A stretch of 33,816 nucleotides of DNA, taken from the IMG/VR virus record IMGVR_UViG_2850761752_000005; one strand, written 5' to 3'. Below the pieces are notes generated by a model that did not search any database, was not told the origin of the DNA, and was given only the letters and a program-made list of their open reading frames with translations. Both the position numbers and the translations under genes were made by a program. The DNA comes from a virus. Taxonomy: Duplodnaviria; Heunggongvirae; Uroviricota; Caudoviricetes. Below are positions 2,856 through 21,171 of the stretch, one piece after another (position 1 is the stretch's first letter; each line of letters starts with the position of its first letter).

Positions 2856-3074
2856 TCAAAGAGAGAGCGCCACCTGTCCTGATTTCATTGGATGCGGCTG
2901 AACCGGATTTGACTCTTTTGGCGTTGCAATCGAACGAACAAAAGTTTCATGGGTAACAAAAGTATGGCTGCAGTTAATGTTCTGGCACTGGTTGTAACGC
3001 TCTTTGGTCAATGAAGATACCTGAAAACTGCTGCGAGTATGGGCGGCACTTCCACACAGTGGGCAAATCATCAT
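2856..3074 (-). CDS. ogr: P2 Ogr-type zinc-finger late transcription activator
   Basis: 72 aa from ATG at 3074 (the ORF track extends to a GTG at 3107); CPLCG...CQNINC cysteine pattern and overall similarity to recalled P2 Ogr. Confidence 0.85.
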   Translation of the reverse strand: MMICPLCGSAAHTRSSFQVSSLTKERYNQCQNINCSHTFVTHETFVRSIATPKESNPVQPHPMKSGQVALSL

Positions 3075-3164
3075 TTTTCGAGTTCTCCCCATTTTTGCTA
3101 AATTCACAATAATGATACCGCATTATTCCATTTTGCAAACTTAAAAGTTCTCCATTGCGAAGAA

Positions 3165-4265
3165 TCATTCCATTTCGAAATCATCAATCCTCACTTCAAG
3201 CTCCAGACTGGTCGTAAAACCGTTATCCGGGCTGACAGTATGCGTCAGAGTCGTAATGGTCCATTCCGCATCATCTAGCGGCTGTTTAAAGCCACTGACC
3301 TTCACAGGCATTTCTGTGTAGAGATCTGCCCGCCCTTCCGCCAGTTGTAGCGAGAATGATGCAACGCCGCGTTGCAGGCGTTCCCACTGCATTTTCGCTG
3401 CCCGTTCGGCGTTGCTCCGGTTGGCATAAGTGCGATTAAGTACCAGCACGTTTTCATCCGTACCCACCAGGTAATCGCCCTGCTTCGCTTCCGGCTCTTT
3501 CTTCTGCTTCTTAGTCCTGCGCTTACGCTTCACCGTGGTGCTTTCTTTCTTCGCGGGTTCGCGGGTATGCAACCAGCTGGCAATGACGCCCGTGTAAGCT
3601 CCGCGATCTGCCAGGGTAAAGCGGTGACTGTCGCCGTCCTTGCGTGTGATAGTGATCACCGGTAGTGGTTTACCGCTGGCGCTTTTACCCTGCCCCTGCC
3701 GGATGAATAACAGATTGCCATTTTTCACCGACGCAATAGCACCGTACTGGCGCGCCAGCCGCATCAAAAAACTGCCGTCACTCTCATTAGTCTGGTCTAT
3801 ATGCTCCACGAGTTTATCCGACAAGTCTTCACCCAATGCCATCTTCAGTTTGTGCCGCGCAGCTATTTCCTTCACCACTTCCCCAACGGTGGTCTTGTGC
3901 CACGACTTTTCACGGCGGGTATTCAGCGTTTCACGAAAATCAGCACTTCGCGCCCGGATAGTCAGGCGATCCGGTGCGCCAGTGTGTTCAATCTCGTCCA
4001 CCGTGAATGCCCCTTTCGGGAAAAGCGGCTGTCCCTTCCAGCCCAGCGCCAGCGTAATGACAGCCCCACGGCGCGGCAGCACGATTTTTCCATCGGCGTC
4101 GTCCAGCTCCAGATCAAGCTGGTCCGCTTCAAAGCCCCGGTTATCCGTCAGCGTCAGCCCCATCAGGCGGTTGTCCAGCACAGTGGTGATATCCCTGCCT
4201 TCAATACTGATGCTGAATGCCGGAGTTTTGTTGCCTTTGTTAAGCAGTTCAGAGCTGAAATTCAC
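3165..4265 (-). CDS. D: P2 gpD-like tail protein (late control D)
   Basis: 366-aa ORF; GTG start overlaps the U stop (GTGA); position after U and before ogr as in P2. Confidence 0.8.
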   Translation of the reverse strand: MNFSSELLNKGNKTPAFSISIEGRDITTVLDNRLMGLTLTDNRGFEADQLDLELDDADGKIVLPRRGAVITLALGWKGQPLFPKGAFTVDEIEHTGAPDRLTIRARSADFRETLNTRREKSWHKTTVGEVVKEIAARHKLKMALGEDLSDKLVEHIDQTNESDGSFLMRLARQYGAIASVKNGNLLFIRQGQGKSASGKPLPVITITRKDGDSHRFTLADRGAYTGVIASWLHTREPAKKESTTVKRKRRTKKQKKEPEAKQGDYLVGTDENVLVLNRTYANRSNAERAAKMQWERLQRGVASFSLQLAEGRADLYTEMPVKVSGFKQPLDDAEWTITTLTHTVSPDNGFTTSLELEVRIDDFEME

Positions 4266-4747
4266 GACAGCAGCCCTCCCACCGTTTTACTGATATCGCT
4301 TAAGGCAGATGTTGCCGTTCCCTGCAGATTATTCAGTTGCGCACTGAGATCACCGAACATATCGGACAGGGATTCATCCACGCGTTTTAGCGACAGGGTG
4401 AACTCAATCCGGCGCGGCATACCGTCGCGGAAAAACTCCGTTTTAGTCTGATTCAGTCCCTCAATCACATACATGCCGTAAATCGTGCCGCTGCCTTCAA
4501 TCAGGGGCCATGCTTTTCCCTGTTCTGCCATCTGCTCCAGAGCCAGCAACGACAGCCTGCCGCCCGTTACCTCCGGCATAAGAACACCAGAAAGCGTCAG
4601 CATGTCGTTGTCCGGTCCCAGAAACTGCGTTGACGGGCGTCGGTTTACCCGGCTGTTTGCCGCATGTCGCCAGCTGCGTTGATACTGCAGCTCCTGATAC
4701 GGCACGGTGCGCAGCATAAACACGTACAATCCCAGCACCATCATCAT
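4262..4747 (-). CDS. U: P2 gpU-like tail protein
   Basis: 161-aa ORF, similar in size to P2 U (159 aa); ATG overlaps the T stop. Confidence 0.8.
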   Translation of the reverse strand: MMMVLGLYVFMLRTVPYQELQYQRSWRHAANSRVNRRPSTQFLGPDNDMLTLSGVLMPEVTGGRLSLLALEQMAEQGKAWPLIEGSGTIYGMYVIEGLNQTKTEFFRDGMPRRIEFTLSLKRVDESLSDMFGDLSAQLNNLQGTATSALSDISKTVGGLLS

Positions 4748-7700
4748 GCGTCGTATCCCCCCTGATCGCTGTAGTTACTCCTGGCTTTTGCCTTCAGCCT
4801 GCGTTCACGTTCATCAAGCTGGCGGGCCACCTCCCGCGCAATATCCTGCGCACTTTGTCCTGGCTGCGTTTGAATGATGATCTGCATCGGTGCCTCAATC
4901 CGTTGAACGGGCGGCACAGTGGCTGCACGACTCACCATCGCTTCACCGCCTTTCGCGGGAAGTGCCAAAGGGTGCAACGGTGGAAGCTCTGCTGGCGTAG
5001 CAGCAACACCCATCATTCCGGCAACAACGGCAGCCAGTGCAGCTGTATTTCTCCGGCTGGTCACATTTGCCGGGCCGTTAACAATTTCCGGCCCGTTTTC
5101 ACCGACGATGCCAAACTGCCCGCGCGGGATATACCCGCCGCTGTCATACATCCCCGCAAAGCCATATCCCCATGACGGAAAACCACCCGATGGCATCATC
5201 ACTTTACCGTCTGCATTCACCGTCGCAGGTTGCTGACGCGTCACGCTTTCCGGCAGTTTCGCCTTTGCGGCCTCTTTACTGACAATGCCAAGTTTCTCCA
5301 GCAACCAGGAAACGCCGGATTTCAGGGAGTCCAGCGGATGCATGACCATATTCAGCCCTTCCGCCAGAGCCTCCCCGAATCGTCGCCCCATTGCCGCTGC
5401 ACTCTGCAGTTCGGCAGAGGTCGACTTAACGGGCGTCAGCAGATCAGTAAACCAGCCCCACAGCGCCTGTACTTTGTCGCCAATCCACTGGAACACAGGC
5501 TTAAGCGGTTCGAACGCGGCACTGACAGGACCTGCCGCCGCTTTGAATCCTTCCACCACGCCACCGAGAAATGCGGTGATGGGCTGCCAGTATTTCCAGA
5601 CAACCAGCGCCACACCCGCCAGTGCAGTAACCACAAGACCTATCAGACTGAGCAGAGCACCTAACAGACCAGAGACGGCATACAGGGCAACGCGCAGCAT
5701 CGCCAGTGGACCGGATGCGAGCATACGCAGCACCGTGCCTGTGGCAGCCAGTCCGCCGCGTAGTACCGCCAGTGGATTCATAAACATCACAGCAACCGCA
5801 CGTAAACCGGATAATCCAGACCGCAAAAGTGCAACCGGCGCACCTGCTACAGTTTTCAGGACATTTCCCGTCAGTGATGCCGTGCGGCGCAAAGACGACA
5901 ACGGCGCAGTAAGTAAACCTGCAGCGTTGCCCGATGAAGCAAGCCCGCGTCGCAGCAGTGCCAGTGGTGCGCCAGCCAGCCAGGACAACGCGTTGCTGGT
6001 TCGGGTTACTGTTGCCGTAACGGAAGGTAACGTTTTGATACCCAGCACAGAGAATCCCAGACGGATGACTGCCAGCGGCCCCAGCACTGCAGCCAGCGCC
6101 ACCGCTAAGGTGCCGAGGCCCACGGTAACGGCAGCTACCACAGCGGCTACTTTCATCAGAGTGCCCGTCAGTTCCGGGTTAGCTTCCACCCAGCGACGCA
6201 ACGCCCCCGTGACGCTTTTCACCGTGTACAGAATATCCATCAGCGGCTGGCGCAGCGTTTCCCCCAGGCTGCTGAAGGTGTTCTGTGCTCCGGTTTTGAC
6301 CAGCAACCACTGAGCAGAAAGTGAATCCTTGTTGATGTCGGATTCTTTCTGCATGGAACCGAGCGCATCATTGCCCGCAGTCAGTTTTAACTGGCGCTGA
6401 AGTTCCGGCAGGTTGTTTGCCAGTTTCGCTGCGTCATCGCCAAACTCTTTACCAAACAACATGGTCATGGCAGACAGGCGCTTATCCTGTGGCAGCGCAT
6501 TCACCTTCTCCAGCACCCGCTGGATAGTTCCCATCGCATCCTTCGTCATCTGCTTTTCAATCACTTCTGGATTGAGTTTCAGCAGATTCATCCCTTCAAA
6601 GAAACTCTTGCTTTGCATGGTGGCAATGGACAATTCACGCACCATCGCGTTTGCTGCACTGGCTGCAACCTCAGGCGCAGCGCCGAGTGTCAGGAAGGTG
6701 GAACCCAGCGCCGCCGCTTTACGATAATCCAGACGGTCAGCCACACCGCCCAGGCGTTGCATGACATCAATGATGTCCGCCCCTTTCGACATGGCGTTAT
6801 CATCCAGATAGTTCAGCGCATCACCGAGCTGCTCAATATTGCGGGTAGGGATTTTGTAGAGCTGGGCGATTTTCCCCAGACTTTCTGACAGTTCATCCGC
6901 TGGCAGTTCAAAGGCTGTTGCCGCCTTTGCCGCCGTGCTGGCGAAGGCCAGCAGGTCACGTTTCTGGTCTTCCCAGCTGTCGTCAGGGTTTGCGACGTTC
7001 ATGCGCGCACCACCTTCAACCAGTGCGGCGAAGTCCACAGCACCGTTTTCCATCGGCAACTGTTCGCTGGCAGCCTTGATGGCACCCTGCATTTCGTAAA
7101 AACGCGCAGTGCGGTTGCCATTATCGTCACGCAGACCATTGACCTGCTTTGCCACACCTTTCATGGCATCTTCCATGCTGGTATAGCTTTTTACTGCCGC
7201 CATCACTGGTGCGCCCATTGCCAGCCCTGCAGCCGTGGTGGTGGCTCCGGCACCTGCAATACGATCCCTTACCTCAAGACGCCTGGCGTAAGCCCCCGGG
7301 CGGCGTGCATTTTTCGCTGTTGCTCCCCGACACGTCGTAACCTCGCTTCCTGCTCAGAAAGCTGCCTGTTATAACGCATCGTTTCACGGGTAATGCGGGC
7401 CGTCGCACTGGCGCCATCATTAGCTGAAATACCAGCACGATAAAGTTCTGCACGCACAAGCGCCGTCTGCTGCTGCAGCTTTTTCTGGCGTTCTTCTAGG
7501 CGCTGAACAGCCAGCCGTTGACGGCCCAGAGCAACAACCTGACGTTGCGAAGGCGGCCCCATCGCTCCCAGTTCCTGACTGAGCAAATTTGCACGCTGGC
7601 GGGCATAGTTCAGCCTGTCGCCTAATTTCTGATTTTCTGCCTGCAGCTTTCGGAAGCTGTCCAGACTGCTCCCGGCCTGATCAAGCTGCTTTATTGCATC

Positions 7701-7820
7701 GCGGGATTTTTTGACAGCAGCAGCCAGTTCTCTTGAACTGGCCTGCGCGGATCGAAATGGGCGGGTGAGTTTGTCAACCGCATTAAGAATCACCTGCAGA
7801 CGCAGGTTATTGTCACTCAT
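4744..7820 (-). CDS. T: tail tape measure protein (gpT-like), interrupted by an apparent single-base frameshift
   Basis: Two ORFs: 7269..7820 (183 aa, coiled-coil-rich; its ATG overlaps the E' stop) and 4744..7218 (824 aa, Gly/Ala/Leu-rich repeats). Their frames differ by one and both are open across about 7269..7355. One extra base in the C5/G run at 7293..7301 would fuse them into about 1025 aa. Confidence 0.7.
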
Positions 7821-8249
7821 GGCTGGCCCCGCTTCTCTGAATCGCTTTATCCCGCCATTCCAGCACTTCGGTCAGCGGCATAACGTCAGTAACGGATGGC
7901 GGCCAGTGAAAGATGGTGGCGATATCAGCCACCAGATCGTCAACCGTCAGGCTGTCGGTAAACCGGCAAGCACCGACTTCTTCAACAAAAAAGTGACAAC
8001 CTCAACCGACATGGCAGTGAGATCTGCCGGGTCCATCTCTGCAATTTCCTGTGCAGTCAGTGCCGGACTGGAGATGCGGGGGATCACGGTCATCATCGCG
8101 TTCACATCCATATCCATAATGGCCTGCAGGCGTGTGCCGCGCAGCGCACCGGACTGCGGTTTACGCAACACAATTTCGGTAATTTCTGTTTTACCGCGCA
8201 TGATGGGAGTATCCAGTTGAATGGTCTTTTCAGTCTGCTTATCGCTCAT
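7813..8249 (-). CDS. E+E' extended chaperone made by programmed -1 frameshift
   Basis: Minus-strand heptamer T TTT TTG (plus 7986..7992) near the E 3' end; the -1 frame stays open for about 59 codons to a TGA at 7813..7815 that overlaps the T start. Predicted length of about 146 aa is close to P2 E+E' (142 aa). Confidence 0.6.
7947..8249 (-). CDS. E: tail assembly chaperone gpE-like
   Basis: 100-aa ORF between FII and T; ends just after a T TTT TTG slippery heptamer. Confidence 0.75.
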   Translation of the reverse strand: MSDKQTEKTIQLDTPIMRGKTEITEIVLRKPQSGALRGTRLQAIMDMDVNAMMTVIPRISSPALTAQEIAEMDPADLTAMSVEVVTFLLKKSVLAGLPTA

Positions 8250-8303
8250 TTTGTTGTCCTGTAAATTAGGTTCTGGCGCGGCATTCCGCGCCGTTCAGAT
8301 ACA

Positions 8304-8819
8304 TCAGAGGCCGAGGGCGTTGCGGTGCGCTTCCATCAGGTCCACACCGTCCACAATTTCCACCATGTTGATCAGGTCCACTTCATAGAGCACCTCACCA
8401 TTGATGGTCAGCTTCGCGTAGCTGTTGGTACTGGTCACTTTGGTAGTGTTGCTTTCGCCCGTCTTCCACTCGCCGGAATCTACTTCTTTGTGACGTCCAC
8501 GCACCACAAGCTCCACGGCCTGCACTTCCCCGGTATCATCACGCTGAATAGAGCCGGTAAAGCGCAGCTGGATGCCATCCACCGTGGCTTTGCCCATCTG
8601 CTTAAACAGCAGCAGTTCAGTACCACCAATGGAAAATTCTGTATCCAGTGCACTGTCATCCAGTCCCAGATCCACATCCACCGCTCCGGGCATACCGCCG
8701 CCGCGATACTTCTCATATTTGCGGGTGAATTTCGGCAGCGTCAGCGACTCAACGATCCCCTGCCAGTTGTTCCCGTCGTTAAACAGGTTCAGGTGTTTTA
8801 ATTTGCGTGGTAAAGCCAT
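8304..8819 (-). CDS. FII: tail tube protein gpFII-like
   Basis: 171-aa ORF (P2 FII is 172 aa); follows the sheath gene. Confidence 0.85.
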   Translation of the reverse strand: MALPRKLKHLNLFNDGNNWQGIVESLTLPKFTRKYEKYRGGGMPGAVDVDLGLDDSALDTEFSIGGTELLLFKQMGKATVDGIQLRFTGSIQRDDTGEVQAVELVVRGRHKEVDSGEWKTGESNTTKVTSTNSYAKLTINGEVLYEVDLINMVEIVDGVDLMEAHRNALGL

Positions 8820-8828
8820 GTTGTCCCC

Positions 8829-10001
8829 TTACGCGCTGACCTGGCTGGAGAAATTCACCAGGTACTGATCGGTGATGCGCTGACGCAGCATCAGGTTTTC
8901 AAGTGGCGGCACTGGCGTGTAGTCGTAATCGATGGTGAGTTTCCCGGCTTTCAGCGTGTCTTTATCGTTCACCGACTCGTCCAGCCAGCAATCACCACCA
9001 ATGAGATAGCCCTGACTGACCAGGCTACGCATTTTGGCGCGGATACCTTCGATAATGTCGCGGGCCAGCGACGGGTTCAGCGGTTTGTCCACCGCCCACA
9101 TGTGCGCTTCTGCCATCGTGTCCATCAGCACCTGCGCCGTGCGGGTGTAGTTTTCGAAGGCAAAGAGCGGATCATCGCTCAGACAGCGGGAACCCCAGAA
9201 GCGGAAACCGTCTTTGCGGATAAGCGTGGTGATATCGTTCTGGTTAAGCAGACCTGCATCGGTTGCCGGGTCCTGCAGATCCCAGAACACATCAGCAGAA
9301 ATTCCGGTGACACCGTTCACGCCCACGTTGGACAGGCTTTTGTGCCATCCGGTCTGCTCATCAATTTTAGCGCGCAGACCGAGCGCACGGGCGGTGGCAT
9401 AAGCCGTTGCTTCGGCATTCAGCACCGTGTCCCAGCCAGTAAAGTCGGGCCAGATCAGCATTCCTTCACGCTGACTGAAGTTTTCACGGTAAGTGATTGC
9501 TTCCTGCACCGTCTTGCAACCATACGCTGACAGGTAAGCAAATCCACGCAGGCTTTGCGCCACGCTCAGCAACTCAGTAGCTACCGCCTTCGTGTCGTGA
9601 CCTGGCACGCCGAGAATGCGCGGTTTAACGCCGAGCTGTGACTGGGCAGATAACAGGGCTTTCATACCTGTTTTTTTACCCTCGGCGGTCACTGCGCCAA
9701 TGATATTGGTTGTGGTTTCTTCTTCCGTTTCACCCTGCGGCACACGCACAACAACGGTCACGGGTTTTGCCTGGTCAGCGATGGCATCCAGCGAACGGGC
9801 CAGCGTGCCAGACTCACCCGCTTTACCGCTGGCGGTCAGCACATCAGTGATCAGCACAGGTTTATTAAGAGGAAACATTTTTGCATCGGCATCATCGCCC
9901 GTGCAGACCATACCCACGATGGCGGTGCTCACCGTGGTAATGGATCGGGTGCCTTCGTTGACTTCAACAACGCGCACCCCGTGGTGGTAATCCTGAGCCA
10001 T
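8829..10001 (-). CDS. FI: contractile tail sheath protein gpFI-like
   Basis: 390-aa ORF (P2 FI is 396 aa); first gene of the FI-FII-E-T-U-D operon. Confidence 0.85.
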
Positions 10002-10077
10002 AGTGGCGAACCTCCTGATTGGATTAGGCTTCGCCCTATGTTGAAGTGATTGTGCCTGACAAACAGCTAAGCGCAGT

Positions 10078-10095
10078 TGTGTCGTTATTCACACA
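10078..10095 (-). promoter_or_regulatory. Candidate Ogr-dependent late promoter element (TGT-N12-ACA) for the FI operon
   Basis: TGTGTCGTTATTCACACA, centred about 85 nt upstream of the FI ATG, as expected for a -55 activator site plus leader. Confidence 0.4.
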
Positions 10096-10143
10096 AAATG
10101 ACGGTATTTGTCCGCTTACAGGAAAAATCAAAATAATACTGAC

Positions 10144-10710
10144 TCAGGGCGATTCATTGCTCTCATTCGCCGGAAATTTTCTATAAATGGTAGAAACGCC
10201 CACATCAAAAATCAGTGCAATACGCTGTCTTGATTCTCCGGCCTCGAGTAAACGTCCAATCTGTGCCCACTGTTCGGTGGTCAACTTAGGACGGCGTCCA
10301 CCTACTCTGCCTTTGGCACGAGCTGCAGCCAGCCCTGCTCTGGTACGTTCAACTATCAGTTCACGTTCCATTTCAGCCAGAGCCCCCATGACGTGAAAAA
10401 AGAAACGGCCCATTGGGGTACTGGTATCAATACTGTCAGTCAGGCTTCGGAAATTCACACCACGCTGGCGCAACTCTTCTATCAGCGTAACAAGATGCCG
10501 CATACTGCGTCCCAGTCTGTCCAGCTTCCAGACAACCAGCGTGTCTCCTGCCGATAGTGTCCTGAGCAGTTTTTTAAGCCCCGGTCTGTCGGGCTTAGTG
10601 CCACTGATTTTATCCTCAAAAATCCGCTCACATCCCGCGCAGTTCAGTGCATTACGTTGCAAATCGGTGTTCTGGTCATTTGTTGACACGCGTACATAGC
10701 CAATAAGCAT
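10144..10710 (-). CDS. serine DNA invertase (Hin/Gin/Pin/Cin family)
   Basis: 188 aa from ATG at 10710; GYVRVSTNDQ catalytic-serine motif at the N-terminus and a C-terminal HTH; the ORF track extends upstream of this start. Confidence 0.85.
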   Translation of the reverse strand: MLIGYVRVSTNDQNTDLQRNALNCAGCERIFEDKISGTKPDRPGLKKLLRTLSAGDTLVVWKLDRLGRSMRHLVTLIEELRQRGVNFRSLTDSIDTSTPMGRFFFHVMGALAEMERELIVERTRAGLAAARAKGRVGGRRPKLTTEQWAQIGRLLEAGESRQRIALIFDVGVSTIYRKFPANESNESP

Positions 10711-10721
10711 GATCAATCCCC

Positions 10722-10747
10722 TGAATAAAAACCGGGGATGATGCCAG
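10722..10747. other. Candidate hix/gix-like inversion crossover site
   Basis: Half-site TGAATAAAAACC resembles the TTATCAAAAACC consensus; lies 12 bp from the invertase start, exactly where the tail-fibre segment reading frame opens (10729). Confidence 0.4.
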
Positions 10748-11127
10748 TTAGCCATTATCTCTGCATTTTCTTAAACGTTGGTTTGGGAGAATTATCTCTG
10801 GCTGGCACTGCATCGGGTGTCATTGGCCTGAATGGGTATGTAACGATTCCGTTAATTATTTCAGGTTCCCGGAGAACACTGATTATTCAGTGGGGGCAGG
10901 CGAGATTTGGTGGGTCTGGTGGTGAAGATGCAGGATATCTTAATGATTTTCCTTTTGCCTTTCCGTCAGCATGTTATGGGATGATAGTTAGTCATGTGGG
11001 GCATACACCTTCAGGCGCAGGAATCCTGTCGGCTTCTGCAATTACATCAAATCAGTTCCGCGGTTTTTCAAGCATAGCGACTGCTGCAAATGCTGTATTA
11101 GGTCGTTATATCGCTATAGGGGTTTAA
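10738..11127 (+). CDS. orphan tail-fibre C-terminal variable segment (Hv'-like), inverted relative to the late operon
   Basis: 129-aa Gly/Ser-rich ORF; frame is open from 10729 at the crossover site; immediately followed by a tail-fibre assembly gene. Confidence 0.5.
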   Translation: MMPVSHYLCIFLNVGLGELSLAGTASGVIGLNGYVTIPLIISGSRRTLIIQWGQARFGGSGGEDAGYLNDFPFAFPSACYGMIVSHVGHTPSGAGILSASAITSNQFRGFSSIATAANAVLGRYIAIGV

Positions 11128-11128
11128 T

Positions 11129-11566
11129 ATGTTTTATAGTCCATCTTTAAACATTTTTGTGAATCCTGCGCTTAAGGATGATTACATTAATGCAAATTCA
11201 TGGCCAGATGATGCTCTGGCTGTCAGTGATGATGTTTATAATGAATTTGCAATCAATACGCCCCCAGATGACAAAATTCGTGTTGCAGGAAAAAATGGAT
11301 TACCCACATGGGCACTAATACCTCCACCATCATATGAAGAACTTATTCAACAGGCAGAATCAGAAAGGCAATTATTGCTTAATCAGGCCAACGAATACAT
11401 GAACAGTAAACAATGGCCCGGTAAAGCCGCTATTGGTCGTCTGAAAGGTGAGGAACTGGCGCAATATAATTTGTGGCTGGATTATCTGGACGCACTGGAA
11501 CTGATTGATACCTCCAGTGCTCCAGATATTGAATGGCCTACGCCTCCGGCAGTTCAGGCCAGATGA
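11129..11566 (+). CDS. tail fibre assembly protein (Tfa/gpG-like)
   Basis: 145-aa ORF ending in the DIEWPTPP motif typical of Tfa proteins. Confidence 0.7.
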   Translation: MFYSPSLNIFVNPALKDDYINANSWPDDALAVSDDVYNEFAINTPPDDKIRVAGKNGLPTWALIPPPSYEELIQQAESERQLLLNQANEYMNSKQWPGKAAIGRLKGEELAQYNLWLDYLDALELIDTSSAPDIEWPTPPAVQAR

Positions 11567-11652
11567 CATCCGGCGCGGTGCTGGTATCTGTTGCCGCCAC
11601 CGCGTCAATGTAATCCAACACGGCGTTAAGTCGGGTGGGTAATGACTCCAAC

Positions 11653-12156
11653 TTACTGATAGTGTTTTATGTTCAGATAATGCCCGATGACCTTGTCATG
11701 CAGCTCCACCGATTTTGAGAACGACAGTGACTTCCGTCCCAGCCTTGCCAGATGTTGTCTCAGATTCAGATTATGTCGCTCAATGCGCTGAGTGTAACGC
11801 TTGCTGATAACGTGCAGCTTTCCCTTCAGGCGTGATTCATACAGCGGCCAGCCATCCGTCATCCATACCACGACCTCAAAGGCCGACAGCAGGCTCAGAA
11901 GACGCTCCAGTGTGGCCAGAGTGCGTTCACCGAAGACGTGCGCCACAACCGTCCTCCGTATCCTGTCATACGCGTAAAACAGCCAGCGCTGACGTGATTT
12001 AGCACCGACGTAGCCCCACTGTTCGTCCATTTCAGCGCAGACAATCACATCACTGCCCGGTTGTATGCGCGAGGTTACCGACTGCGGCCTGAGTTTTTTA
12101 AGTGACGTAAAACCGTGTTGAGGCCAACGCCCATAATGCGTGCACTGGCGCGACAT
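11653..12156 (-). CDS. insB: IS1 InsB
   Basis: 167-aa ORF matching recalled InsB; overlaps the insA 3' end. Confidence 0.95.
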
Positions 12157-12350
12157 CCGACGCCATTCATGGCCATATCAATGATTTTCTGGTGCGTACC
12201 GGGCTGAGAGGCGGTGTAAGTGAACTGTAGTTGCCATGTTTTACGGCAATGAGAGCAGAGATAGCGCTGATGTCCGGCAGTGCTTTTGCCGTTACGCACC
12301 ACGCCTTCAGTAGCGGAGCAGGAAGGACATCTGATGGAAATGGAAGCCAC
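12075..12350 (-). CDS. insA: IS1 InsA
   Basis: 91-aa ORF matching recalled InsA. Confidence 0.95.
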
Positions 12351-12428
12351 GCAAGCACCTTAAAATCACCATCATACACTAAATCAGTAAGTTGGCAGCA
12401 TTACCACTCAATTGAAAACAAATAAAAA

Positions 12429-12872
12429 TCAAGTTAGGTTTTTAATGAACATTCTTTCAATTAACTCAATAGATTGGACATTAAAACCTAATAACTGCCT
12501 TTTCGCATAGATGGTATAAATACCTTTTCGACTGACGCGATCACTCAAGCCGTAATGGTGAATACGGGCAATGCGCTGCACCCTACCTTCAAACTGTACG
12601 CTGGCAGAATCGGCGCTGGCTGCAGTTTTCAGGTATTTTGTGGTGCGCAGCTTTGTAAACATCTGACGTTTGATGCACCCCTTTTTGCTGCGTGCTGTTA
12701 CCCTGCGCGGCTCATAACTGCTGCCATCAGGATTGCGCTGCATCCTGATGTTCTGCTGCTGTGTCCGGCGCAGTTCCTGCGCCAGCTGGCGCATCATGCG
12801 GCTTCTTGCGGCTGGCTCCAGATTCGCCAATAATGCACTCAGCCAGTCGTCCACCTTCTGCAATTCAGCCAC
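12429..12872 (-). CDS. S: tail completion protein gpS-like
   Basis: 147-aa ORF (P2 S is 150 aa); GTG start overlaps the R stop; last late gene before the IS1 junction. Confidence 0.7.
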   Translation of the reverse strand: MAELQKVDDWLSALLANLEPAARSRMMRQLAQELRRTQQQNIRMQRNPDGSSYEPRRVTARSKKGCIKRQMFTKLRTTKYLKTAASADSASVQFEGRVQRIARIHHYGLSDRVSRKGIYTIYAKRQLLGFNVQSIELIERMFIKNLT

Positions 12873-13296
12873 GTTTCACCGTCCACATTTCTTCAGGTTC
12901 ATCAGGTTCCGCTACCGCTTCAACGTTCGACACACTGCCGTCAGTGCTGACCAGCACACGCTCCGTCAGTTGCAGGTTAAGGCTGATATCACAGACATCG
13001 TTGCGCAGAATATCCACCTCAAAGGTGAATAGCTTTTCCCGTAACGCCGGGTTATTGATCGCATCGGGCTGGTTATCCCGCAGCCACAGCAAAACCGGGG
13101 CCATCAGCAGATTCTGGTCGCCGCTGAAATCTTCAATCACCACGTTCAGGGTGTAGCGGTACTCCCATGACATGGAGCTAGCCCCGGAGGCAACCAGCGA
13201 ACCGTTATCCACAAACAGATGCAGTTTGTCCGGGTTATTACGGACATAAGGCACTGCTTTATTGAGGGCGTGGCGCAGGGATTGTGGTTTGTTCAC
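12865..13296 (-). CDS. R: tail completion protein gpR-like
   Basis: GTG start at 13296 preceded by AGGAG; the ORF track alternative is a TTG at 13317. Confidence 0.7.
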   Translation of the reverse strand: MNKPQSLRHALNKAVPYVRNNPDKLHLFVDNGSLVASGASSMSWEYRYTLNVVIEDFSGDQNLLMAPVLLWLRDNQPDAINNPALREKLFTFEVDILRNDVCDISLNLQLTERVLVSTDGSVSNVEAVAEPDEPEEMWTVKRG

Positions 13297-13549
13297 TGTT
13301 TCGCTCCTGACACGCAATAATCATGTCCACTTTGTCTGCACAGACCGCCCAGGCGGCCTCCGTTTCATCCAGCAACGCATTCAGATCACCGTTAGTGCGC
13401 GGCGCTGCCTGCTCCAGCCGACACGGCGTCACTCGCGGACAACCACTGACGGTAAGCTGCACCTCCGGTGAGTGCCGGACGTTCCCGCAGCCGGATAATG
13501 TCAGCAGGCAAAGGAGTATCAGCCCAGCGACGTAAATCCTCGTTCTCAC
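13259..13549 (-). CDS. lysC: LysC/Rz1-like outer-membrane spanin lipoprotein
   Basis: 96-aa ORF embedded out of frame in lysB; signal peptide with lipobox LTLSGC; GTG start. Confidence 0.65.
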   Translation of the reverse strand: MRTRIYVAGLILLCLLTLSGCGNVRHSPEVQLTVSGCPRVTPCRLEQAAPRTNGDLNALLDETEAAWAVCADKVDMIIACQERNSEQTTIPAPRPQ

Positions 13550-13820
13550 GTTTCAGTTCCTCAATCCGGCGTTGTCGTTGTCTCAGCAGTACACTGGTCT
13601 GTTCTGCTTCGGCATAGAGCCGCGCCTGCTCCCGGTTATTGGTTTCAGTCAGAATGGACAGGCTGATAAGCTGGCTGTTGCTCTTTGCCAGTGCCTGGCT
13701 TTTGCTCTGCAGCTCGTCTGCCTGCGTGCTGATGGTCTGGCTGGCATCAGCCAGCCGCCACGTCTGCCAGCCCAGCGCCGCCAATAATAACGCCAGCACA
13801 ACCAGCAGCAACCGGTTCAT
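13392..13820 (-). CDS. lysB: LysB/Rz-like inner-membrane spanin
   Basis: 142-aa ORF with N-terminal TM segment and coiled-coil body; ATG overlaps the lysA stop. Confidence 0.75.
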   Translation of the reverse strand: MNRLLLVVLALLLAALGWQTWRLADASQTISTQADELQSKSQALAKSNSQLISLSILTETNNREQARLYAEAEQTSVLLRQRQRRIEELKRENEDLRRWADTPLPADIIRLRERPALTGGAAYRQWLSASDAVSAGAGSAAH

Positions 13821-14194
13821 GCGGCTACCTGTTGCGCCATCTGATTATGGGTGATCCAGAAGGCAATAACGGTCAGCAGATAAAAGACCAGGGTAATGGC
13901 CCACCCCGTCCAGGCGAGACTGACGACAATCAGCAATCGTATCACCCAGCTGATAAATACGTTTTCTTTTCGGGTAATTGTCTTCAGTAAAGATGCCCTC
14001 AACTCCTGCCAGAGCGGGCCATTCTTAATTAACGAAGCCAGTGCTACCGGAATTACCGCCCATGTCAGTAAACAGGCTACCCAAACGCCGGACGCTGCCA
14101 GTACCGGAAAAATCCCCTGCGGATACACCATTGCTGCGATTAACAGCGCCATCCATAACATCAGAAACAGCCCGCTGATTAATTTCTTTTTCAT
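13817..14194 (-). CDS. lysA: LysA-like lysis timing membrane protein
   Basis: 125 aa from ATG at 14194 (MKKK...), 1 nt after the K stop; several TM segments; the ORF track extends to a GTG at 14266. Confidence 0.65.
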   Translation of the reverse strand: MKKKLISGLFLMLWMALLIAAMVYPQGIFPVLAASGVWVACLLTWAVIPVALASLIKNGPLWQELRASLLKTITRKENVFISWVIRLLIVVSLAWTGWAITLVFYLLTVIAFWITHNQMAQQVAA

Positions 14195-14195
14195 T

Positions 14196-14708
14196 TCAGT
14201 TTGCTCCCTGTAAACACCAGGCCATCTCCCGCGCACGGCGGTTATCCAGCCCCTGATTAAAAACACCTTTCACATAAACCCAGCGCGGCAACTGTCGGCA
14301 CGCATCCGCCCAGCGCCGCTGATTGAGCAATTTCACCAGCGTGGAACTGCAGGCATTGCCCGTACCCACGTTGAAGGCAAACGACACCGCAGCGTCATAC
14401 ACCTTCTGCGGCGGCTGTTGCTTCACACACTTTTCCAGCGCCCGCTCCACACGCAGCACGTTGGAGATCAGCCCTTCTGCTGCCTGTCGCTCCGTAATGG
14501 TTTTGCCGGGAATGACGCCCGACGTATTACCAATACCGTCGGTCCAGACACCCGCGCTGCACTGATACGGCTGCAGACGACAACCTTCGTAATCGGCAAT
14601 CAGTTTCAGTCCCTCCACGGAGGTGTGAAGCTGCTGAAAACCCGGCAGCGTGGCAGCAATAGCCAGCACGGCCCCGACAAGGCAGCGTTTAACGATTGAT
14701 GGATTCAT
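14196..14708 (-). CDS. K: endolysin (gpK-like lysozyme) with N-terminal hydrophobic segment
   Basis: 170-aa ORF (P2 K is 165 aa); position between holin and lysA. Confidence 0.8.
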   Translation of the reverse strand: MNPSIVKRCLVGAVLAIAATLPGFQQLHTSVEGLKLIADYEGCRLQPYQCSAGVWTDGIGNTSGVIPGKTITERQAAEGLISNVLRVERALEKCVKQQPPQKVYDAAVSFAFNVGTGNACSSTLVKLLNQRRWADACRQLPRWVYVKGVFNQGLDNRRAREMAWCLQGAN

Positions 14709-14904
14709 AGTCCTCCCGCGAGATCTGCCCGTCGCGCAGAAGCTGGTAGGCTTTGTGTTTGTAGTACCAGTTGATAGCCAGCATCAGCACACCAATCATC
14801 AGGCCGCCCAGCGTTGAGGCATCCTTGATGGACAAATCGCCCAGCCAGGCCAGCACGACGGCGATGCAATACGTGATAAAGGCGCTGATTCGCTCAAGCG
14901 TCAT
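14689..14904 (-). CDS. Y: holin (gpY-like)
   Basis: 71-aa ORF with two hydrophobic segments and a charged C-terminus, directly upstream of the endolysin. Confidence 0.7.
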   Translation of the reverse strand: MTLERISAFITYCIAVVLAWLGDLSIKDASTLGGLMIGVLMLAINWYYKHKAYQLLRDGQISREDYESINR

Positions 14905-14907
14905 AAT

Positions 14908-15111
14908 TCAGTCCCATAGCTGGACGGTCTGCACGGTGGTGGTGGTCGGAATGTCCGGCAGCTCCACCTGCAGCCCGTGAGGTAAAAAGGGGCCGTATTC
15001 GGCAAGCCCCGGATTTGCCTTCAGTACCTGCTCCGTGACACCCTGCGTGCGCCCGTAATGACGCCAGCAAAGCGCGTCCACCGTGTCATACTGATGCGCA
15101 CGCACTTTCAT
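14908..15111 (-). CDS. X: tail protein gpX-like
   Basis: 67-aa ORF, same length as P2 X; ATG overlaps the L stop. Confidence 0.8.
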   Translation of the reverse strand: MKVRAHQYDTVDALCWRHYGRTQGVTEQVLKANPGLAEYGPFLPHGLQVELPDIPTTTTVQTVQLWD

Positions 15112-15638
15112 CAGATAAGCTCCACTGTGCAGTGCGGCGCGTCCTGCACCCGGCTGATGGCCCAGCGGGCGTCACGCCACAAATCACCGCTTGCTTCCGC
15201 CAGTTCTTCGCCCCGCTTCGCACCGGATGCCGTGGCGTCATAGTCCTGGAAACGTTCGTTGAGCATGGCGCGAGCCCAGCAGTAAACCGCGTTGAAATAG
15301 TGCTGAATGCGCTCACTTTTCCCGTCCAGCTGTTCCGCCGGAACCTCAGCCAGCGACGCATACCCCAGCATCTGCTGGCGTCTGCGAAACTCATACAGCT
15401 CTGCGTTAACCTCCGAAATTGCCGACAGTGCAACCTGCTTTAAACGCGGCTGCGTCACCGTGCCGTCAGTGCGCATGACACTGCGAAACTCCGACAGGTC
15501 CACATCAGGCCAGAACGGCGTATTTCTAATGATTTCCGCCTGTTCCGGTGCCTGTTCTGGCGCAACAAACTTCATGCTGCTTTCTCCTGAAATAAAGGGC
15601 GGTGGACGGGGTTTTGATGTGGCTGTGCCTTTCGCCAC
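15111..15638 (-). CDS. L: head completion protein gpL-like
   Basis: 175 aa from GTG at 15638 (P2 L is 169 aa); an internal ATG at 15575 with a strong AGGAGA site is an alternative start. Confidence 0.75.
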   Translation of the reverse strand: MAKGTATSKPRPPPFISGESSMKFVAPEQAPEQAEIIRNTPFWPDVDLSEFRSVMRTDGTVTQPRLKQVALSAISEVNAELYEFRRRQQMLGYASLAEVPAEQLDGKSERIQHYFNAVYCWARAMLNERFQDYDATASGAKRGEELAEASGDLWRDARWAISRVQDAPHCTVELI

Positions 15639-15670
15639 CCCGTGCCGCCCGTGCGCGGGGGCACGTTCTG

Positions 15671-16321
15671 TCAGCGGCTGTCATTGCGCAGTCTGCGCTC
15701 CAGCTGCTGTTTGTCTTTTTTCACGCCACAGCGGGGATCGAGCTGTAACGCATGGTTGAGATGATTAAGGGCGGAAGCCGGATTGCTTTCACTCAGGACC
15801 GCGCCAATCGCTTTATGCAGACGTGCCCGTGACTGGTCCGGCATATCCAGACCGTCTGTCAGCTCCAGCGTCTGCAGCAACAGATCGGCATCAAAGCCGG
15901 TGGCGGCAAGCATTGCGCTCTGCGCTGCATCTGCCATTTCCTCTGTCAGCACGGTCTGCACGTTGCGGTTGCCCAGCGGCATCACCCATCCATGACGCAG
16001 GGCATGACGCCCGATCTCCAGCGCCCCGGCATAATCTCCGGCATCAATGCGCCACAACATCACGTACATCAGCACGTCATCCTGTTGAGCGCCTCCGGCA
16101 GCCAGGACACCCTCCGCCCAGGCGGCGTACTTCGGCAGCAGCTCCACTTTGATTTCCGCTTTTTTGACCGTGGACTGAACGCCCTTGAGACGGCGGCGGT
16201 CTTCCGCCAGTTGCAGCAGCATCAGGTCATAGCCCGATGCGTGGCGAACACTGCCACCCTCACGGACGGCCTGTTCAGCCTGAACGCGCAGGCGATGCTG
16301 CCGTGCGGGACTCAGGCTCAT
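15671..16321 (-). CDS. M: terminase small (endonuclease) subunit gpM-like
   Basis: 216-aa ORF between N and L. Confidence 0.8.
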   Translation of the reverse strand: MSLSPARQHRLRVQAEQAVREGGSVRHASGYDLMLLQLAEDRRRLKGVQSTVKKAEIKVELLPKYAAWAEGVLAAGGAQQDDVLMYVMLWRIDAGDYAGALEIGRHALRHGWVMPLGNRNVQTVLTEEMADAAQSAMLAATGFDADLLLQTLELTDGLDMPDQSRARLHKAIGAVLSESNPASALNHLNHALQLDPRCGVKKDKQQLERRLRNDSR

Positions 16322-16324
16322 GGA

Positions 16325-17383
16325 TTACGCTCCGGTTTCGGCTGCGGCGGCGCTGAAATCACTAATCTGGATGTTTTCCACCAGTGCGGCGCAGCGGTAG
16401 TCCTCAACCACATAGGCTTCGTTAACGGATTCAAAGTTTTCAATCCGGTCACGTTTCGGGTTGTCGATAACTGAACGGCGGCGGGTGTCTTCCTGCCAGT
16501 AGATGGACAGGTTATCCAGACGGGTGATCAGCAGCGCATTCGGCGGGAAGAACGGCGCACGCACGGCCTGCAGGCCACCCATGCGTTTCTGACTGATGAT
16601 CATATCGGCAGCCAGTTTTTCACTGTTTTCCTGCTCTTTGTTGACCAGCGGGAAATACTTGTCAGACAGCAGTTCACGACCGCAAATCACCACCAGATCG
16701 TCATCGTCCTGGTAGACCACGTCGATAAGCTCATTGACGGCATCCATCACCACGGCGTCCAGGTTGGCATATTCGCCACCTTTCCCGACTTTCACTGCGC
16801 CCGGTGTGGTTTCACCGCCCGTGGTGGTGCTGCCCATGACGTGATCCGGTGCATCCTCACGGATTTTCTGCAGCCAGCCTTTATTCACATCCTGCAGCAG
16901 CGGGTTTTCGCTACGGTTGGAGGTTTTCGCACGCTTCACGCCATTAAAGCCGATCATGATGCGGTCCAGTGCCTGACGTTTCACGATGGCGTCACGGATA
17001 CGCACCTGAAAATCCTGAAACTTCGCCCACAGGTCCAGCTTCGCGTAGGTCAGCACCGTGTCAAAGTTGGTCTGCTCGCATTTATATTCCACATCGACCA
17101 TCAGCGTCGGATCGACAGGTTCACGCTCTTTCGCAGTGGTATCAGTGGTTCCGGCAATGGTGCTGCCAACTCCCAACCCCAGCAGCTGACCGGACTGCTC
17201 AGTCACTGGCGTGACGTTAATCAGAGTCAGGAAAGCGGCGGACTGCTGGATCTGGTCTTCCAGCGTCTGCTGCACGGACGGCTCTACGGTGAACTTGCTG
17301 GACAGTTCTTCAACTGCCACACCGTTCAGACGCGCCAGTTGCTGCAGGTAAGCGTTAAAAGCAAAGCGGGTATTCTTCTTCAT
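16325..17383 (-). CDS. N: major capsid protein gpN-like
   Basis: 352-aa ORF (P2 N is 357 aa). Confidence 0.85.
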   Translation of the reverse strand: MKKNTRFAFNAYLQQLARLNGVAVEELSSKFTVEPSVQQTLEDQIQQSAAFLTLINVTPVTEQSGQLLGLGVGSTIAGTTDTTAKEREPVDPTLMVDVEYKCEQTNFDTVLTYAKLDLWAKFQDFQVRIRDAIVKRQALDRIMIGFNGVKRAKTSNRSENPLLQDVNKGWLQKIREDAPDHVMGSTTTGGETTPGAVKVGKGGEYANLDAVVMDAVNELIDVVYQDDDDLVVICGRELLSDKYFPLVNKEQENSEKLAADMIISQKRMGGLQAVRAPFFPPNALLITRLDNLSIYWQEDTRRRSVIDNPKRDRIENFESVNEAYVVEDYRCAALVENIQISDFSAAAAETGA

Positions 17384-17399
17384 CAGGTTTTGTGCTCCA

Positions 17400-18233
17400 T
17401 CAGCAATTGGTCAGAGTGTCAGCGGGGGCGTTACCGCCTGTTGCACGCTGGCGGTAGTCCTGGCGGCTGTCTTCATGACTCAGCTTGTCCACCAGTTCGT
17501 TAAAGGCGGTTTGCTGTGCCTGCAGGGCAGTCTCCAGCTCAGACAGGCGTTCTTCCTGCTCAGACAGGGATTTTTCGGTGCGTGCGCTCAGGTTCTGCTG
17601 CTCAGTGGCGACCAGCTCCACGGCCTTATGCACATCAGAGAACCGGGCGTCATCGGACTGCTCTTTTTTGGTAAACAGCGCCGTGACGCGGGCAAACAGG
17701 GACGGTTTGTCGTCCTGGACTTCTTCCAGTTCGATCACCGTTTCCTCTGCGGCGGTAAAGAGATTGGCGGGATTCTGCTTGCGGTTTGCCAGCGGGTTAT
17801 GGGCTGCACTGGCGCTGAATGTCAGCATTTCAGTGCCCAGACTGGCAGGGTCATCAGTGGCAGCCAGGCCGACTAGGTAGGCTTTGCCCGTATCAGCGAA
17901 CTTCGGGCTGACTTCCATAAAGGTGAATAATTTCTGGCCTTTTTTCACCAGTTCCACCAGGGACTCCGTTGGCTCAACGTCAGCATACAGCGCCATCTTG
18001 CCTGCCAGCGGACCTTCCGTGATTTCTTCAGCAAACAGCGCCGTCACCTTGCCGTAGCGGTTAAAGGTGCTGTCCGGCAGATAAGACTTGATGTGCTCAA
18101 GGTTAATCAGCGCGGTATACACCGCCGGGTTATAGCTGGCTGCCATCTGTTCCAGCCATTCACGCTGGATTTCGCGTCCGTCGGTGGTGGCACCTTCCAC
18201 CCCGATGCGAAAACGCTTTGCTTTCACTGTCAT
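17400..18233 (-). CDS. O: capsid scaffold protein gpO-like
   Basis: 277-aa acidic, coiled-coil-rich ORF; first gene of the O operon, divergent from P. Confidence 0.85.
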   Translation of the reverse strand: MTVKAKRFRIGVEGATTDGREIQREWLEQMAASYNPAVYTALINLEHIKSYLPDSTFNRYGKVTALFAEEITEGPLAGKMALYADVEPTESLVELVKKGQKLFTFMEVSPKFADTGKAYLVGLAATDDPASLGTEMLTFSASAAHNPLANRKQNPANLFTAAEETVIELEEVQDDKPSLFARVTALFTKKEQSDDARFSDVHKAVELVATEQQNLSARTEKSLSEQEERLSELETALQAQQTAFNELVDKLSHEDSRQDYRQRATGGNAPADTLTNC

Positions 18234-18311
18234 GAGCCGTGCTCCGTTAGAAAAAACTTACTGGAGCCTTATGGTTGCGGTGATAGGGGCAGTGAAACAA
18301 TGCGCGGTATT

Positions 18312-18329
18312 TGTACCGACAACCACACA
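18312..18329. promoter_or_regulatory. Candidate Ogr-dependent late promoter element (TGT-N12-ACA) in the P/O divergent region
   Basis: TGTACCGACAACCACACA; centre is about 87 nt upstream of the O ATG and 56 nt upstream of the P ATG. Confidence 0.4.
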
Positions 18330-18375
18330 AACCGCAGGCGGGGAAAGCCTTCATTCAAGGCTGTAGGTTTGTGCC

Positions 18376-20142
18376 ATGAACACCACACTGACACCCGCAG
18401 ATCTCGATCCCCGTCGGCAGGCCATGCTGCTGTACTTTCAGGGATACCGCGTAGCCCGCATTGCTGAAATGCTGGGCGAGAAAGTTGCAACCGTTCACAG
18501 CTGGAAAAAACGCGACAAGTGGGGTGACTATGGGCCTCTGGATCAGATGCAGCTCACCACCGCCGCACGCTACTGCCAGCTCATCATGAAGGAGCACAAA
18601 GAAGGGAAAGATTTCAAAGAGATTGACCTGCTGGCGCGCCAGTCTGAGCGCCACGCGCGGATCGGCAAGTTTAACAATGGCGGCAACGAAGCCGACTTAA
18701 ACCCTAACGTCGCCAACCGCAACAAAGGCCCACGCCGTCAGCCTGAAAAGAATGTTTTCACCGATGACCAGATTGAGAAGCTGGAAAAAATTTTCCATTC
18801 CTCCATGTTCAACTACCAGCGCCACTGGTGGGAAGCCGGAAAAACCAACCGCATCCGCAACCTGCTGAAGTCACGCCAGATCGGCGCGACCTTCTATTTT
18901 GCCCGTGAAGCCCTGATTGACGCCCTGCTTACCGGACGTAACCAGATTTTCCTTTCTGCCAGTAAGGCACAGGCCCACGTCTTCAAACAGTACATCATCG
19001 ACTTTGCCAAAGAAGTGGAGGTGGAGCTGAAAGGCGATCCGATGGTGCTTCCCAACGGGGCCACACTGTATTTCCTCGGCACCAATGCCCGCACTGCCCA
19101 GAGTTATCACGGTAACCTGTATCTGGATGAATATTTCTGGATACCGAAATTTCAGGAGCTACGCAAAGTGGCTTCCGGTATGGCTATTCACAAGAAATGG
19201 CGGCAGACCTATTTTTCCACACCATCCAGTCTGACCCACAGTGCTTATCCGTTCTGGTCCGGTGCGCTGTTCAACCGTGGGCGCAACAAAGCTGACAAGG
19301 TGGACATCGACCTGTCCCACAGCAATCTGGCCCCCGGCCGGCTGTGCGCAGACGGGCAATACCGCCAGATAGTCACCGTGGAAGATGCGGTGCGCGGCGC
19401 CTGTAACCTGTTCGACCTTGACCAGTTGCGCATGGAGTACAGCCCTGACGAATACCAGAACCTGCTGATGTGCGAGTTCGTGGACGATCTCGCGTCCGTG
19501 TTCCCGCTCAGCGAATTGCAGGCGTGCATGGTGGACAGCTGGGAAGTCTGGACCGACTTTCATGCACTGGCCCTGCGCCCGTTTGGCTGGCGCGAAGTGT
19601 GGATCGGTTATGACCCGGCAAAAGGTACGCAGAACGGCGACAGCGCCGGATGCGTGGTGGTGGCACCGCCAGCCGTGCCAGGCGGTAAGTTCCGCATTCT
19701 TGAGCGTCACCAGTGGCGCGGAATGGACTTTCGCGCCCAGGCTGACGCCATCAAAAAACTGACTGAACAGTACAACGTGACCTATATCGGCATCGACTCA
19801 ACCGGCGTTGGTCACGGGGTTTACGAGAACGTGAAAGCGTTTTTTCCTGCCGTCCGGGAGTTTGTCTACAACCCCAACGTTAAAAACGCCCTGGTACTCA
19901 AGGCCTACGACATTATCAGCCACCGCCGTCTTGAGTTTGACGCCGGGCACACCGACATTGCGCAGTCATTCATGGCAATCCGTCGCGCCACCACCGCCAG
20001 CGGCAACCGCCCGACCTATGAAGCCAGCCGCAGCGAAGAAGCCAGCCATGCCGATCTGGCCTGGGCAACAATGCACGCACTGTTTAACGAACCGCTGCAG
20101 GGCGAGTCCGCCAATACCAGCAATATTGTGGAGATTTTTTGA
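18376..20142 (+). CDS. P: terminase large (ATPase) subunit gpP-like
   Basis: 588-aa ORF (P2 P is 590 aa); stop overlaps the Q start (ATGA). Confidence 0.9.
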   Translation: MNTTLTPADLDPRRQAMLLYFQGYRVARIAEMLGEKVATVHSWKKRDKWGDYGPLDQMQLTTAARYCQLIMKEHKEGKDFKEIDLLARQSERHARIGKFNNGGNEADLNPNVANRNKGPRRQPEKNVFTDDQIEKLEKIFHSSMFNYQRHWWEAGKTNRIRNLLKSRQIGATFYFAREALIDALLTGRNQIFLSASKAQAHVFKQYIIDFAKEVEVELKGDPMVLPNGATLYFLGTNARTAQSYHGNLYLDEYFWIPKFQELRKVASGMAIHKKWRQTYFSTPSSLTHSAYPFWSGALFNRGRNKADKVDIDLSHSNLAPGRLCADGQYRQIVTVEDAVRGACNLFDLDQLRMEYSPDEYQNLLMCEFVDDLASVFPLSELQACMVDSWEVWTDFHALALRPFGWREVWIGYDPAKGTQNGDSAGCVVVAPPAVPGGKFRILERHQWRGMDFRAQADAIKKLTEQYNVTYIGIDSTGVGHGVYENVKAFFPAVREFVYNPNVKNALVLKAYDIISHRRLEFDAGHTDIAQSFMAIRRATTASGNRPTYEASRSEEASHADLAWATMHALFNEPLQGESANTSNIVEIF

Positions 20143-21171
20143 TGGGAAAGAGTAAGAAGAACCGCGCTGCGGCGACGAAACAGACCCAGCATAAAAACCA
20201 GACTTCAGCCGAAGCATTCAGCTTCGGCGATCCCGTTCCGGTTCTGGACCGCCGTGAACTACTGGACTATGTGGAATGCGTACAGACAGATCGCTGGTAT
20301 GAGCCGCCAGTGAGTTTTGACGGACTGGCGCGCACCTTCCGCGCCGCCGTGCATCACAGTTCACCAATTGCGGTGAAATGCAACATTCTGATCAGTACCT
20401 ACATCCCTCACCCGCTGCTCAGCCAGCAGGCTTTTTCACGTTTTGTGCAGGATTATCTGGTATTTGGTAACGCTTACCTGGAGAAACGCACAAACCGGTT
20501 CGGAGAGGTCATCGCTCTTGAGCCTGCTCTGGCAAAATACACCCGACGCGGATTAGACCTGGATACCTACTGGTTTGTGCAATACGGCATGACCACGCAG
20601 CCGTATCAGTTCACGAAAGGAAGCATCTTTCATCTGATGGAACCGGACATCAACCAAGAGATCTACGGCCTGCCAGGTTACCTTTCTGCCATTCCGTCAG
20701 CCCTGCTCAACGAGTCCGCCACGCTGTTCCGCCGATAGTATTACATTAACGGCAGTCATGCAGGCTTCATCATGTACATGACCGATGCCGCGCAAAACCA
20801 GGAGGATGTGAACAACCTCCGCAATGCGATGAAAAGCGCCAAAGGACCAGGTAACTTCCGCAATCTGTTTATGTACTCGCCTAACGGCAAAAAGGACGGG
20901 CTTCAGATCATCCCGTTGTCAGAAGTCGCGGCGAAGGATGAGTTTCTGAACATCAAGAACGTGAGCCGGGATGACATGATGGCGGCGCATCGTGTGCCAC
21001 CGCAAATGATGGGGATTATGCCTAATAATGTCGGGGGTTTGGGGATGTGGAGAAGGCGAGCCTGGAGTTTGTACGTAACGAGTTAATACCGTTACAAAAA
21101 AGAATGATGGAAATAAATAAATTGGTAAGTGAGAACATTGTTAAATTTGATAGTTATAAACTAGCTACTTA
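20139..21171 (+). pseudogene. Q: portal protein gpQ-like, disrupted by an in-frame amber codon and a frameshift
   Basis: In-frame TAG at 20736..20738 with the same frame continuing to 21086; the final 40 or so codons (...DVEKASLEFVRNELIPLQ...) are in another frame, rejoined by adding one G to the G5 run at 21033..21037. Total span is about 344 codons, as in P2 Q. Confidence 0.75.

Follow-up and report, generated by a model that had tools for sequence, protein, structure and literature searches.

A probable IS1-adjacent deletion of the baseplate and tail-fibre genes in a P2-like prophage of a Shigella boydii-type genome

The window analysed here, the whole 33,816-nt stretch of DNA in the IMG/VR record IMGVR_UViG_2850761752_000005, contains a prophage of the P2 type (Peduoviridae) from a Shigella boydii-type genome, with ybjL on one side and rcdA on the other. 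Its late genes are the P2 complement in P2 order (Q P O N M L X holin K lysA/B/C R S ... FI FII E T U D ogr). The baseplate and fibre operon V-W-J-I-H-G is missing; the last 32 codons of G are its sole remainder, and an IS1 element (copy 1) stands between them and S. How was this block lost, and what part did the insertion sequence play? A preliminary description, made from the letters of the window, had proposed that an IS-mediated deletion, and not a simple insertion, produced the junction, and that alignment to an intact prophage would map the endpoints.

As a reference we used the intact P2-like prophage of E. coli UPEC-245U (NZ_CP049845.1; L001), which lies between ybjL and rcdA. Queried separately against complete E. 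coli genomes, the two flanks of IS1 copy 1 both match this genome (left 100%, right 99.6%) at positions 5,546 bp apart. The whole-window alignment to L001 gives four collinear blocks, all in one orientation and at 99.6–99.9% identity (99.8–99.9% for the two blocks beside IS1 copy 1), outside which the window consists of insertion sequence throughout:

Block 1: window 1-11637, L001 1512-13149
Block 2: window 12406-27723, L001 18696-34017
Block 3: window 28970-30311, L001 35853-37194
Block 4: window 32393-33441, L001 37186-38235

The alignment puts V, W, J, I, H and G exactly between the IS1 flanks, as the preliminary description had anticipated. The deleted stretch is L001 13150-18695 (5,546 bp), with the following content:

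Within L001 13150-18695, deleted: G, first 168 codons (5' 83%); Pfam Caudo_TAP
Within L001 13150-18695, deleted: H; Pfam Phage_tail_fib and Collar
Within L001 13150-18695, deleted: I; Pfam Tail_P2_I
Within L001 13150-18695, deleted: J; Pfam Baseplate_J
Within L001 13150-18695, deleted: W; Pfam GPW_gp25
Within L001 13150-18695, deleted: V; Pfam Phage_base_V and Apex
L001 17696-18715, opposite strand, between V and S: DUF5677 gene, 339 aa, deleted bar its last 20 nt; Pfam DUF5677 (E=6e-28, L001 protein)

When the seven L001 proteins (G, H, I, J, W, V and DUF5677) were searched against the window by tblastn, the G remnant and the paralogous tfa' were the only finds. G residues 169-200 were recovered at 11636-11541 with 100% identity, covering 17% of G. 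Homologues of V, W, J, I and H elsewhere in the prophage, named beforehand as evidence against a loss, did not emerge from this search of the window (best E=0.6). The proposed loss of six genes is therefore correct for V, W, J, I and H, and needs amendment in that G keeps its last 32 codons and the DUF5677 gene has gone as well. Similarly, the expectation that S is followed by V-W-J-I-H-G holds for the six genes in L001, except that in the present lineage the 1-kb opposite-strand DUF5677 gene comes first. In phage 500465-1, S is followed directly by V and the DUF5677 gene is absent, which makes the latter cargo carried in the S/V slot; over 12406-12522 the sequence of phage relatives differs from that of the window, and the gene is variable cargo. 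A PADLOC search with the DUF5677 protein returned no match, so a defence role is not assignable.

The junction itself comprises the following features of the window:

11129-11566, plus strand: tfa', silent alternative tail-fibre assembly gene, identical to L001; Pfam Caudo_TAP (E=8.5e-33)
11538-11637, minus strand: G remnant, 3' 100 bp (aa 169-200 and stop) of a tail-fibre assembly gene cut by the deletion
11629-11637: AGTCGGGTG, deletion-made junction and putative 9-bp target of the deletion-forming strand transfer; the L001 alignment stops at 13149/13150
11638-12405, minus strand: IS1 copy 1, 768 bp, IRL at 12405, read directly from the sequence
12406-12414: ACTCAATTG, remaining copy of the original 9-bp target-site duplication, found on both sides of the identical IS1 in the sister genome L014
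12406-12425, plus strand: DUF5677 remnant, last 20 nt including the stop codon; maps to L001 18696-18715
12429-12872, minus strand: S (tail completion/virion morphogenesis), intact; Pfam Phage_tail_S (E=5e-37)

S has 444 nt, its length in L001, and is free of internal stops. The reported succession of S, 23 bp and then IS1 is borne out (S 12429-12872, IS1 ending at 12405), and the 23 bp at 12406-12428 are the final 20 nt of the DUF5677 gene plus a 3-nt spacer. On the far side, IS1 had been described as followed directly by the inverted fibre half-segment; tfa' does end at 11566, but the 71 bp at 11567-11637 are part of the G remnant rather than spacer, and this remnant overlaps the end of tfa'.

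The terminal inverted repeats of IS1 copy 1 match at 20 of 23 positions, its reading frames insA (12075-12350, 91 aa) and insB' (11653-12156, 167 aa) are open, and the A6C –1 frameshift motif AAAAAAC occurs at IS position 307. An identical IS1 locus carries the Pfam domains Zn_ribbon_InsA, HTH_Tnp_IS1 and DDE_Tnp_IS1 (PF03811, PF12759 and PF03400), and E. coli IS1 copies share 99.5% identity with the element. Its 9-bp flanks, AGTCGGGTG (11629-11637) and ACTCAATTG (12406-12414), agree at five of nine positions, so a target-site duplication is absent, as first stated; re-inspection for identical 9-bp repeats, which had been named as a way to overturn the reading, again finds two different 9-mers. 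Non-matching flanks are what a deletion would be expected to leave. IS1 favours AT-rich target sites, and the left target AGTCGGGTG is GC-rich, hence atypical, a point against its use in a transposition event. The left (G/IS1) junction is identical in L002-L006, L010, L011, L012 and L015. Neither junction occurs in any record among the 5,426 complete E. coli genomes searched, and the right junction has no match in the GTDB species-representative genomes (one genome per species). E. coli matches H1-H3, which run 13 nt past the IS1 end, were considered as the same insertion site and rejected, because they lie at an unrelated locus between malZ and acpH.

A sister genome, CP026766.1 (L014), was found through an exact-sequence look-up of the tfa' protein; the look-ups of S and tfa' contexts covered ~27 contigs each. 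Its gene order is tfa', G, H, I, J, W, V, DUF5677, IS1, S. The IS1 is identical to copy 1 of the window at 768 of 768 positions, shares its orientation and right-hand site, and is bounded on both sides by ACTCAATTG, a perfect 9-bp duplication whose right junction is that of the window; correspondingly, precisely these 9 bp are common to both blocks in the alignment of L014 with L001. Five SNPs that distinguish the window from the E. coli reference are also present in L014, which places it in the same lineage, and L014 is the natural state before the deletion. There the insertion shortens the DUF5677 protein from 339 to 337 aa. Relative to L014, the window has lost 7510-13064, that is 5,555 bp (5,546 bp plus one duplication copy), a stretch that abuts the IRR terminus; both states and the exact endpoints can be read directly from the genomes. 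An intermediate with its duplication and all six genes in place supports the original reading of an IS-mediated deletion as opposed to a simple insertion. As a separate observation, the fibre gene H is already split in L014 (8012-9553, ORFs of 388 and 121 aa), and for that reason the loss of fibre function there may have had nothing to do with the IS1-mediated deletion.

Very likely, then, IS1 inserted first and a deletion of the V-to-G block from its terminus followed, most plausibly by one-step intramolecular transposition. In a first step, IS1 would have entered the AT-rich 3' tip of the DUF5677 gene between S and V, producing the usual 9-bp duplication ACTCAATTG and almost no damage. In a second step, confined to the window lineage, a deletion would have begun exactly at the IRR terminus of the resident IS1 and run for 5,555 bp, removing DUF5677, V, W, J, I, H and the first 168 codons of G, ending inside the invertible tail-fibre segment and leaving IS1 and its other junction unchanged. 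Such an event would be a classical 'adjacent deletion' by one-step intramolecular IS1 transposition, with AGTCGGGTG in G as the target. From parsimony and the shared SNPs we infer the order of the two steps, and the transposase-driven chemistry is likewise proposed.

Two related genomes carry the G/IS1 junction of the window together with larger losses that start from the other end of the element. CP162059.1 (L011) lacks window 12406-19219 (~6.8 kb, from S into the terminase gene) from the IRL end, with its distal endpoint at window 19220. In CP160651.1 (L015), ~20 kb more has gone from the IRL end, up to window 32402/3. By published definition, adjacent deletions start at a fixed terminus of one IS and differ in how far they reach (PMC9330008), and the window, L011 and L015 fit this definition. 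We also note that the extended deletion in L015 ends (8277/8278, corresponding to window 32402/32403) 0–1 bp from the outer edge of the 9-bp target of a second IS1, copy 2; this may reflect a local IS1 hot spot or coincidence.

The alternative that fares best is a two-step route, in which a second IS1 of the same orientation lands in G and RecA-dependent homologous recombination then excises 5.5 kb together with one IS1. It would leave the same product, a single IS1 with unrelated flanks, and a nearby second insertion is plausible given that Shigella chromosomes hold hundreds of IS copies, mostly IS1 (PMC7373316). Its signature would be a G-borne IS1 flanked by a duplication of its own, at the junction GCAGCATTACC abutting AGTCGGGTGGTTTCTGCC. 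However, no double-IS1 intermediate was present among the 5,426 complete E. coli genomes, where no record shares either junction, or among the S or tfa' contexts returned (~27 contigs per look-up). Moreover, the route invokes two events in place of one, and under it the IRL-end deletions of L011 and L015 would each require another lost IS1. We consider the two-step route unlikely, and one-step intramolecular IS1 transposition the best candidate mechanism, at a level between probable and highly probable on the sequence comparisons.

The deletion also bears on the invertible segment in which it ends. Three further features of the window belong to this segment:

10144-10710, minus strand: DNA invertase (Gin/Cin/Pin-type serine recombinase), intact; its sequence equals that of the 188-aa 'recombinase family protein' in L001 (100% identity)
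10741-11127, plus strand: H'c, silent alternative C-terminal fibre exon, Gp53-like_C domain (Pfam PF21882, E=1e-12)
10766-10791: sole remaining 26-bp crossover site, TTCTCCCAAACCAACGTTTAAGAAAA on the minus strand

Loci identical to the invertase locus list the Pfam domains Resolvase and HTH_7 in their gene tables. L001 has 26-bp crossover sites at 12278-12303 and 14132-14157, the latter inside H; a second such site was not found in the window. The same prophage in L016, an E. coli-type genome, has the segment flipped between exactly these sites (6647-8505 versus L001 12287-14145), and the flip joins H to the Gp53-like_C exon to give a 465-aa fibre. L016 is direct evidence of a working fibre switch in intact relatives. 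With one of the two crossover sites left, the H'c and tfa' half-segment is frozen in its silent orientation and the switch is inoperable; this half-segment is promoterless and the invertase orphaned.

Judged from its gene content, the prophage lacks in cis the baseplate hub, spike and wedge genes and any expressed fibre or chaperone. The preliminary statement that it cannot make a baseplate or fibres holds in this form, as gene absence in cis in the present prophage; another P2-like prophage elsewhere in the genome might supply the functions in trans. The deletion would account for an inability of the prophage, by itself, to make infectious particles. Other lesions are independent inactivating hits on the same prophage: the portal gene Q has a nonsense codon at 20736, shared with Sb227 (where the portal is likewise split into two ORFs), and the integrase combines a TGG-to-TAG nonsense change at 33203 with a 1-bp deletion at 33270 and a second, presumably IS911-like, copy from 33442. 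Most retained late genes are 0–3 amino acids from those of the intact phage, and one could imagine that sheath, tube, lysis and capsid genes have been kept by selection, perhaps as a remnant that has been domesticated or that satellites can exploit, rather than merely awaiting decay. We regard this as very improbable, however, in view of the portal nonsense codon and the outright loss of such genes in the sister lineages L011 and L015. Downstream of the portal, at 21278-23791, a cargo pair of an HNH endonuclease and an AAA_21/AAA_15 ATPase occupies a typical P2 accessory slot; it matches PDC-M01, listed by PADLOC as a candidate defence system (B, E=1e-33; A, E=2e-55), with a weaker match to Septu PtuA.

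An assembly artefact, in which repeat collapse at IS1 cost 5.5 kb, must also be weighed. The window assembly is not error-free: single-base deletions at 2653, 7298, 21038, 21234 and 22462, all in homopolymer runs, are unique to it in comparison with four sister genomes and produce what look like frameshifts in T (tape measure), Q (portal) and the AAA ATPase; sequencing errors, not true pseudogenes, are the probable explanation. The window is 100% identical to CP026731.1 across 20.4 kb, and five single-base gaps are its sole differences from CP000036.1, the genome of S. boydii serotype 4 strain Sb227 (PMC8767353). Both junctions, compared as 60-mers, are base-for-base alike in five independently sequenced complete genomes, Sb227 included, so that the deletion junctions are found in Sb227 and at least four more assemblies, and short-read draft contigs (L007, L017) break at the same IS1. 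Identical junctions across assemblies argue that the deletion is old and clade-fixed, and leave an artefact barely credible.

The remaining insertion sequences of the window are these:

27724-28969 and 33442-33816: two inverted IS3-family copies, presumably IS911-like, the second of which interrupts the integrase
30312-31076 and 32391-32393, inverted relative to copy 1: IS1 copy 2, with the duplication CTTTTGCTT at 30303-30311 and 32394-32402
31077-32387: IS3-family element, 1,311 bp, with 26-bp inverted repeats and a 3-bp duplication (ATT), splitting IS1 copy 2 3 bp from its IRR tip; by terminal sequence we take it to resemble IS629/IS1203

IS1 copy 2 lies between the cI-side genes and the integrase and is a simple insertion. 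That copy 1 recombined with the inverted copy 2 (30312-32393), scrambling the prophage and displacing the baseplate genes, can be dismissed as next to impossible: the two are inverted and identical over 765 bp, but copy 2 is itself bounded by a perfect 9-bp duplication, CTTTTGCTT, and is therefore not a recombination partner, the window aligns collinearly with the intact reference throughout, in a single orientation, and the flanks of copy 1 match neither flank of copy 2. An apparent 771-nt '100%' inverted repeat reaching 6 bp beyond IS1 was likewise rejected; the match holds at only four of those six flanking bases, and the terminal 3 bp of copy 2 are missing at the point where the IS3-family element inserted. 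The element at 27724-28969 stands in place of 1,835 bp of early-region sequence (L001 34018-35852): dam has lost its 3' end and cII most of its length, and TraR, DUF2732, DUF5347 and Fil are gone, which makes a second IS-adjacent deletion.

The case is useful for annotation, since the remnants of G (100 bp) and DUF5677 (20 nt) and the orphaned invertase need careful calling: the two remnants are not genes, and the invertase is not a working switch. It also offers a resolved natural example of a single insertion sequence dismantling a prophage, with successive states preserved in the genomes of one Shigella clade.

Among known systems, the nearest classified phage is Escherichia phage 500465-1 (Peduoviridae, Wadgaonvirus), at 94–97% identity to the window. 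It shares with the UPEC-245U prophage, which is 99.8% identical to the window, the late-gene order S, V-W-J-I-H-G, invertible H'c/tfa' half-segment, invertase and FI, whereas the window lacks the whole V-to-G block. The invertible segment resembles the Mu G, P1 C and e14 P segments, in which a serine invertase adjoins two fibre C-termini and two chaperones between 26-bp inverted sites, and, as in such Gin/Cin/Pin-type segments, both orientations occur naturally (L001 versus L016); unlike them, the window keeps one site and one half of the segment. In starting exactly at an IS terminus and keeping the IS and its other junction, the loss resembles the classical E. coli IS1 adjacent deletions attributed to intramolecular target-primed transposition, as it does in its variable distal endpoint, with related genomes carrying nested deletions from either IS end. 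In contrast to laboratory-selected IS1 adjacent deletions, the present event is a natural one, fixed in a prophage and known here from sequence. Finally, the locus resembles IS-driven genome decay in Shigella, in which IS1 is the dominant and most expanded IS (Hawkey et al. 2020, PMC7373316), an account that mentions neither prophages (term count 0) nor the present locus. The window prophage adds to its IS1 copy 1 a second IS1, two IS911-like copies, an IS629-like element, a further IS-adjacent 1.8-kb deletion and point pseudogenes. IS1-mediated deletion in the decay of Shigella prophages is already well known, and this is an ordinary case of it, to which the exact endpoints and the natural series of intermediates lend added value.
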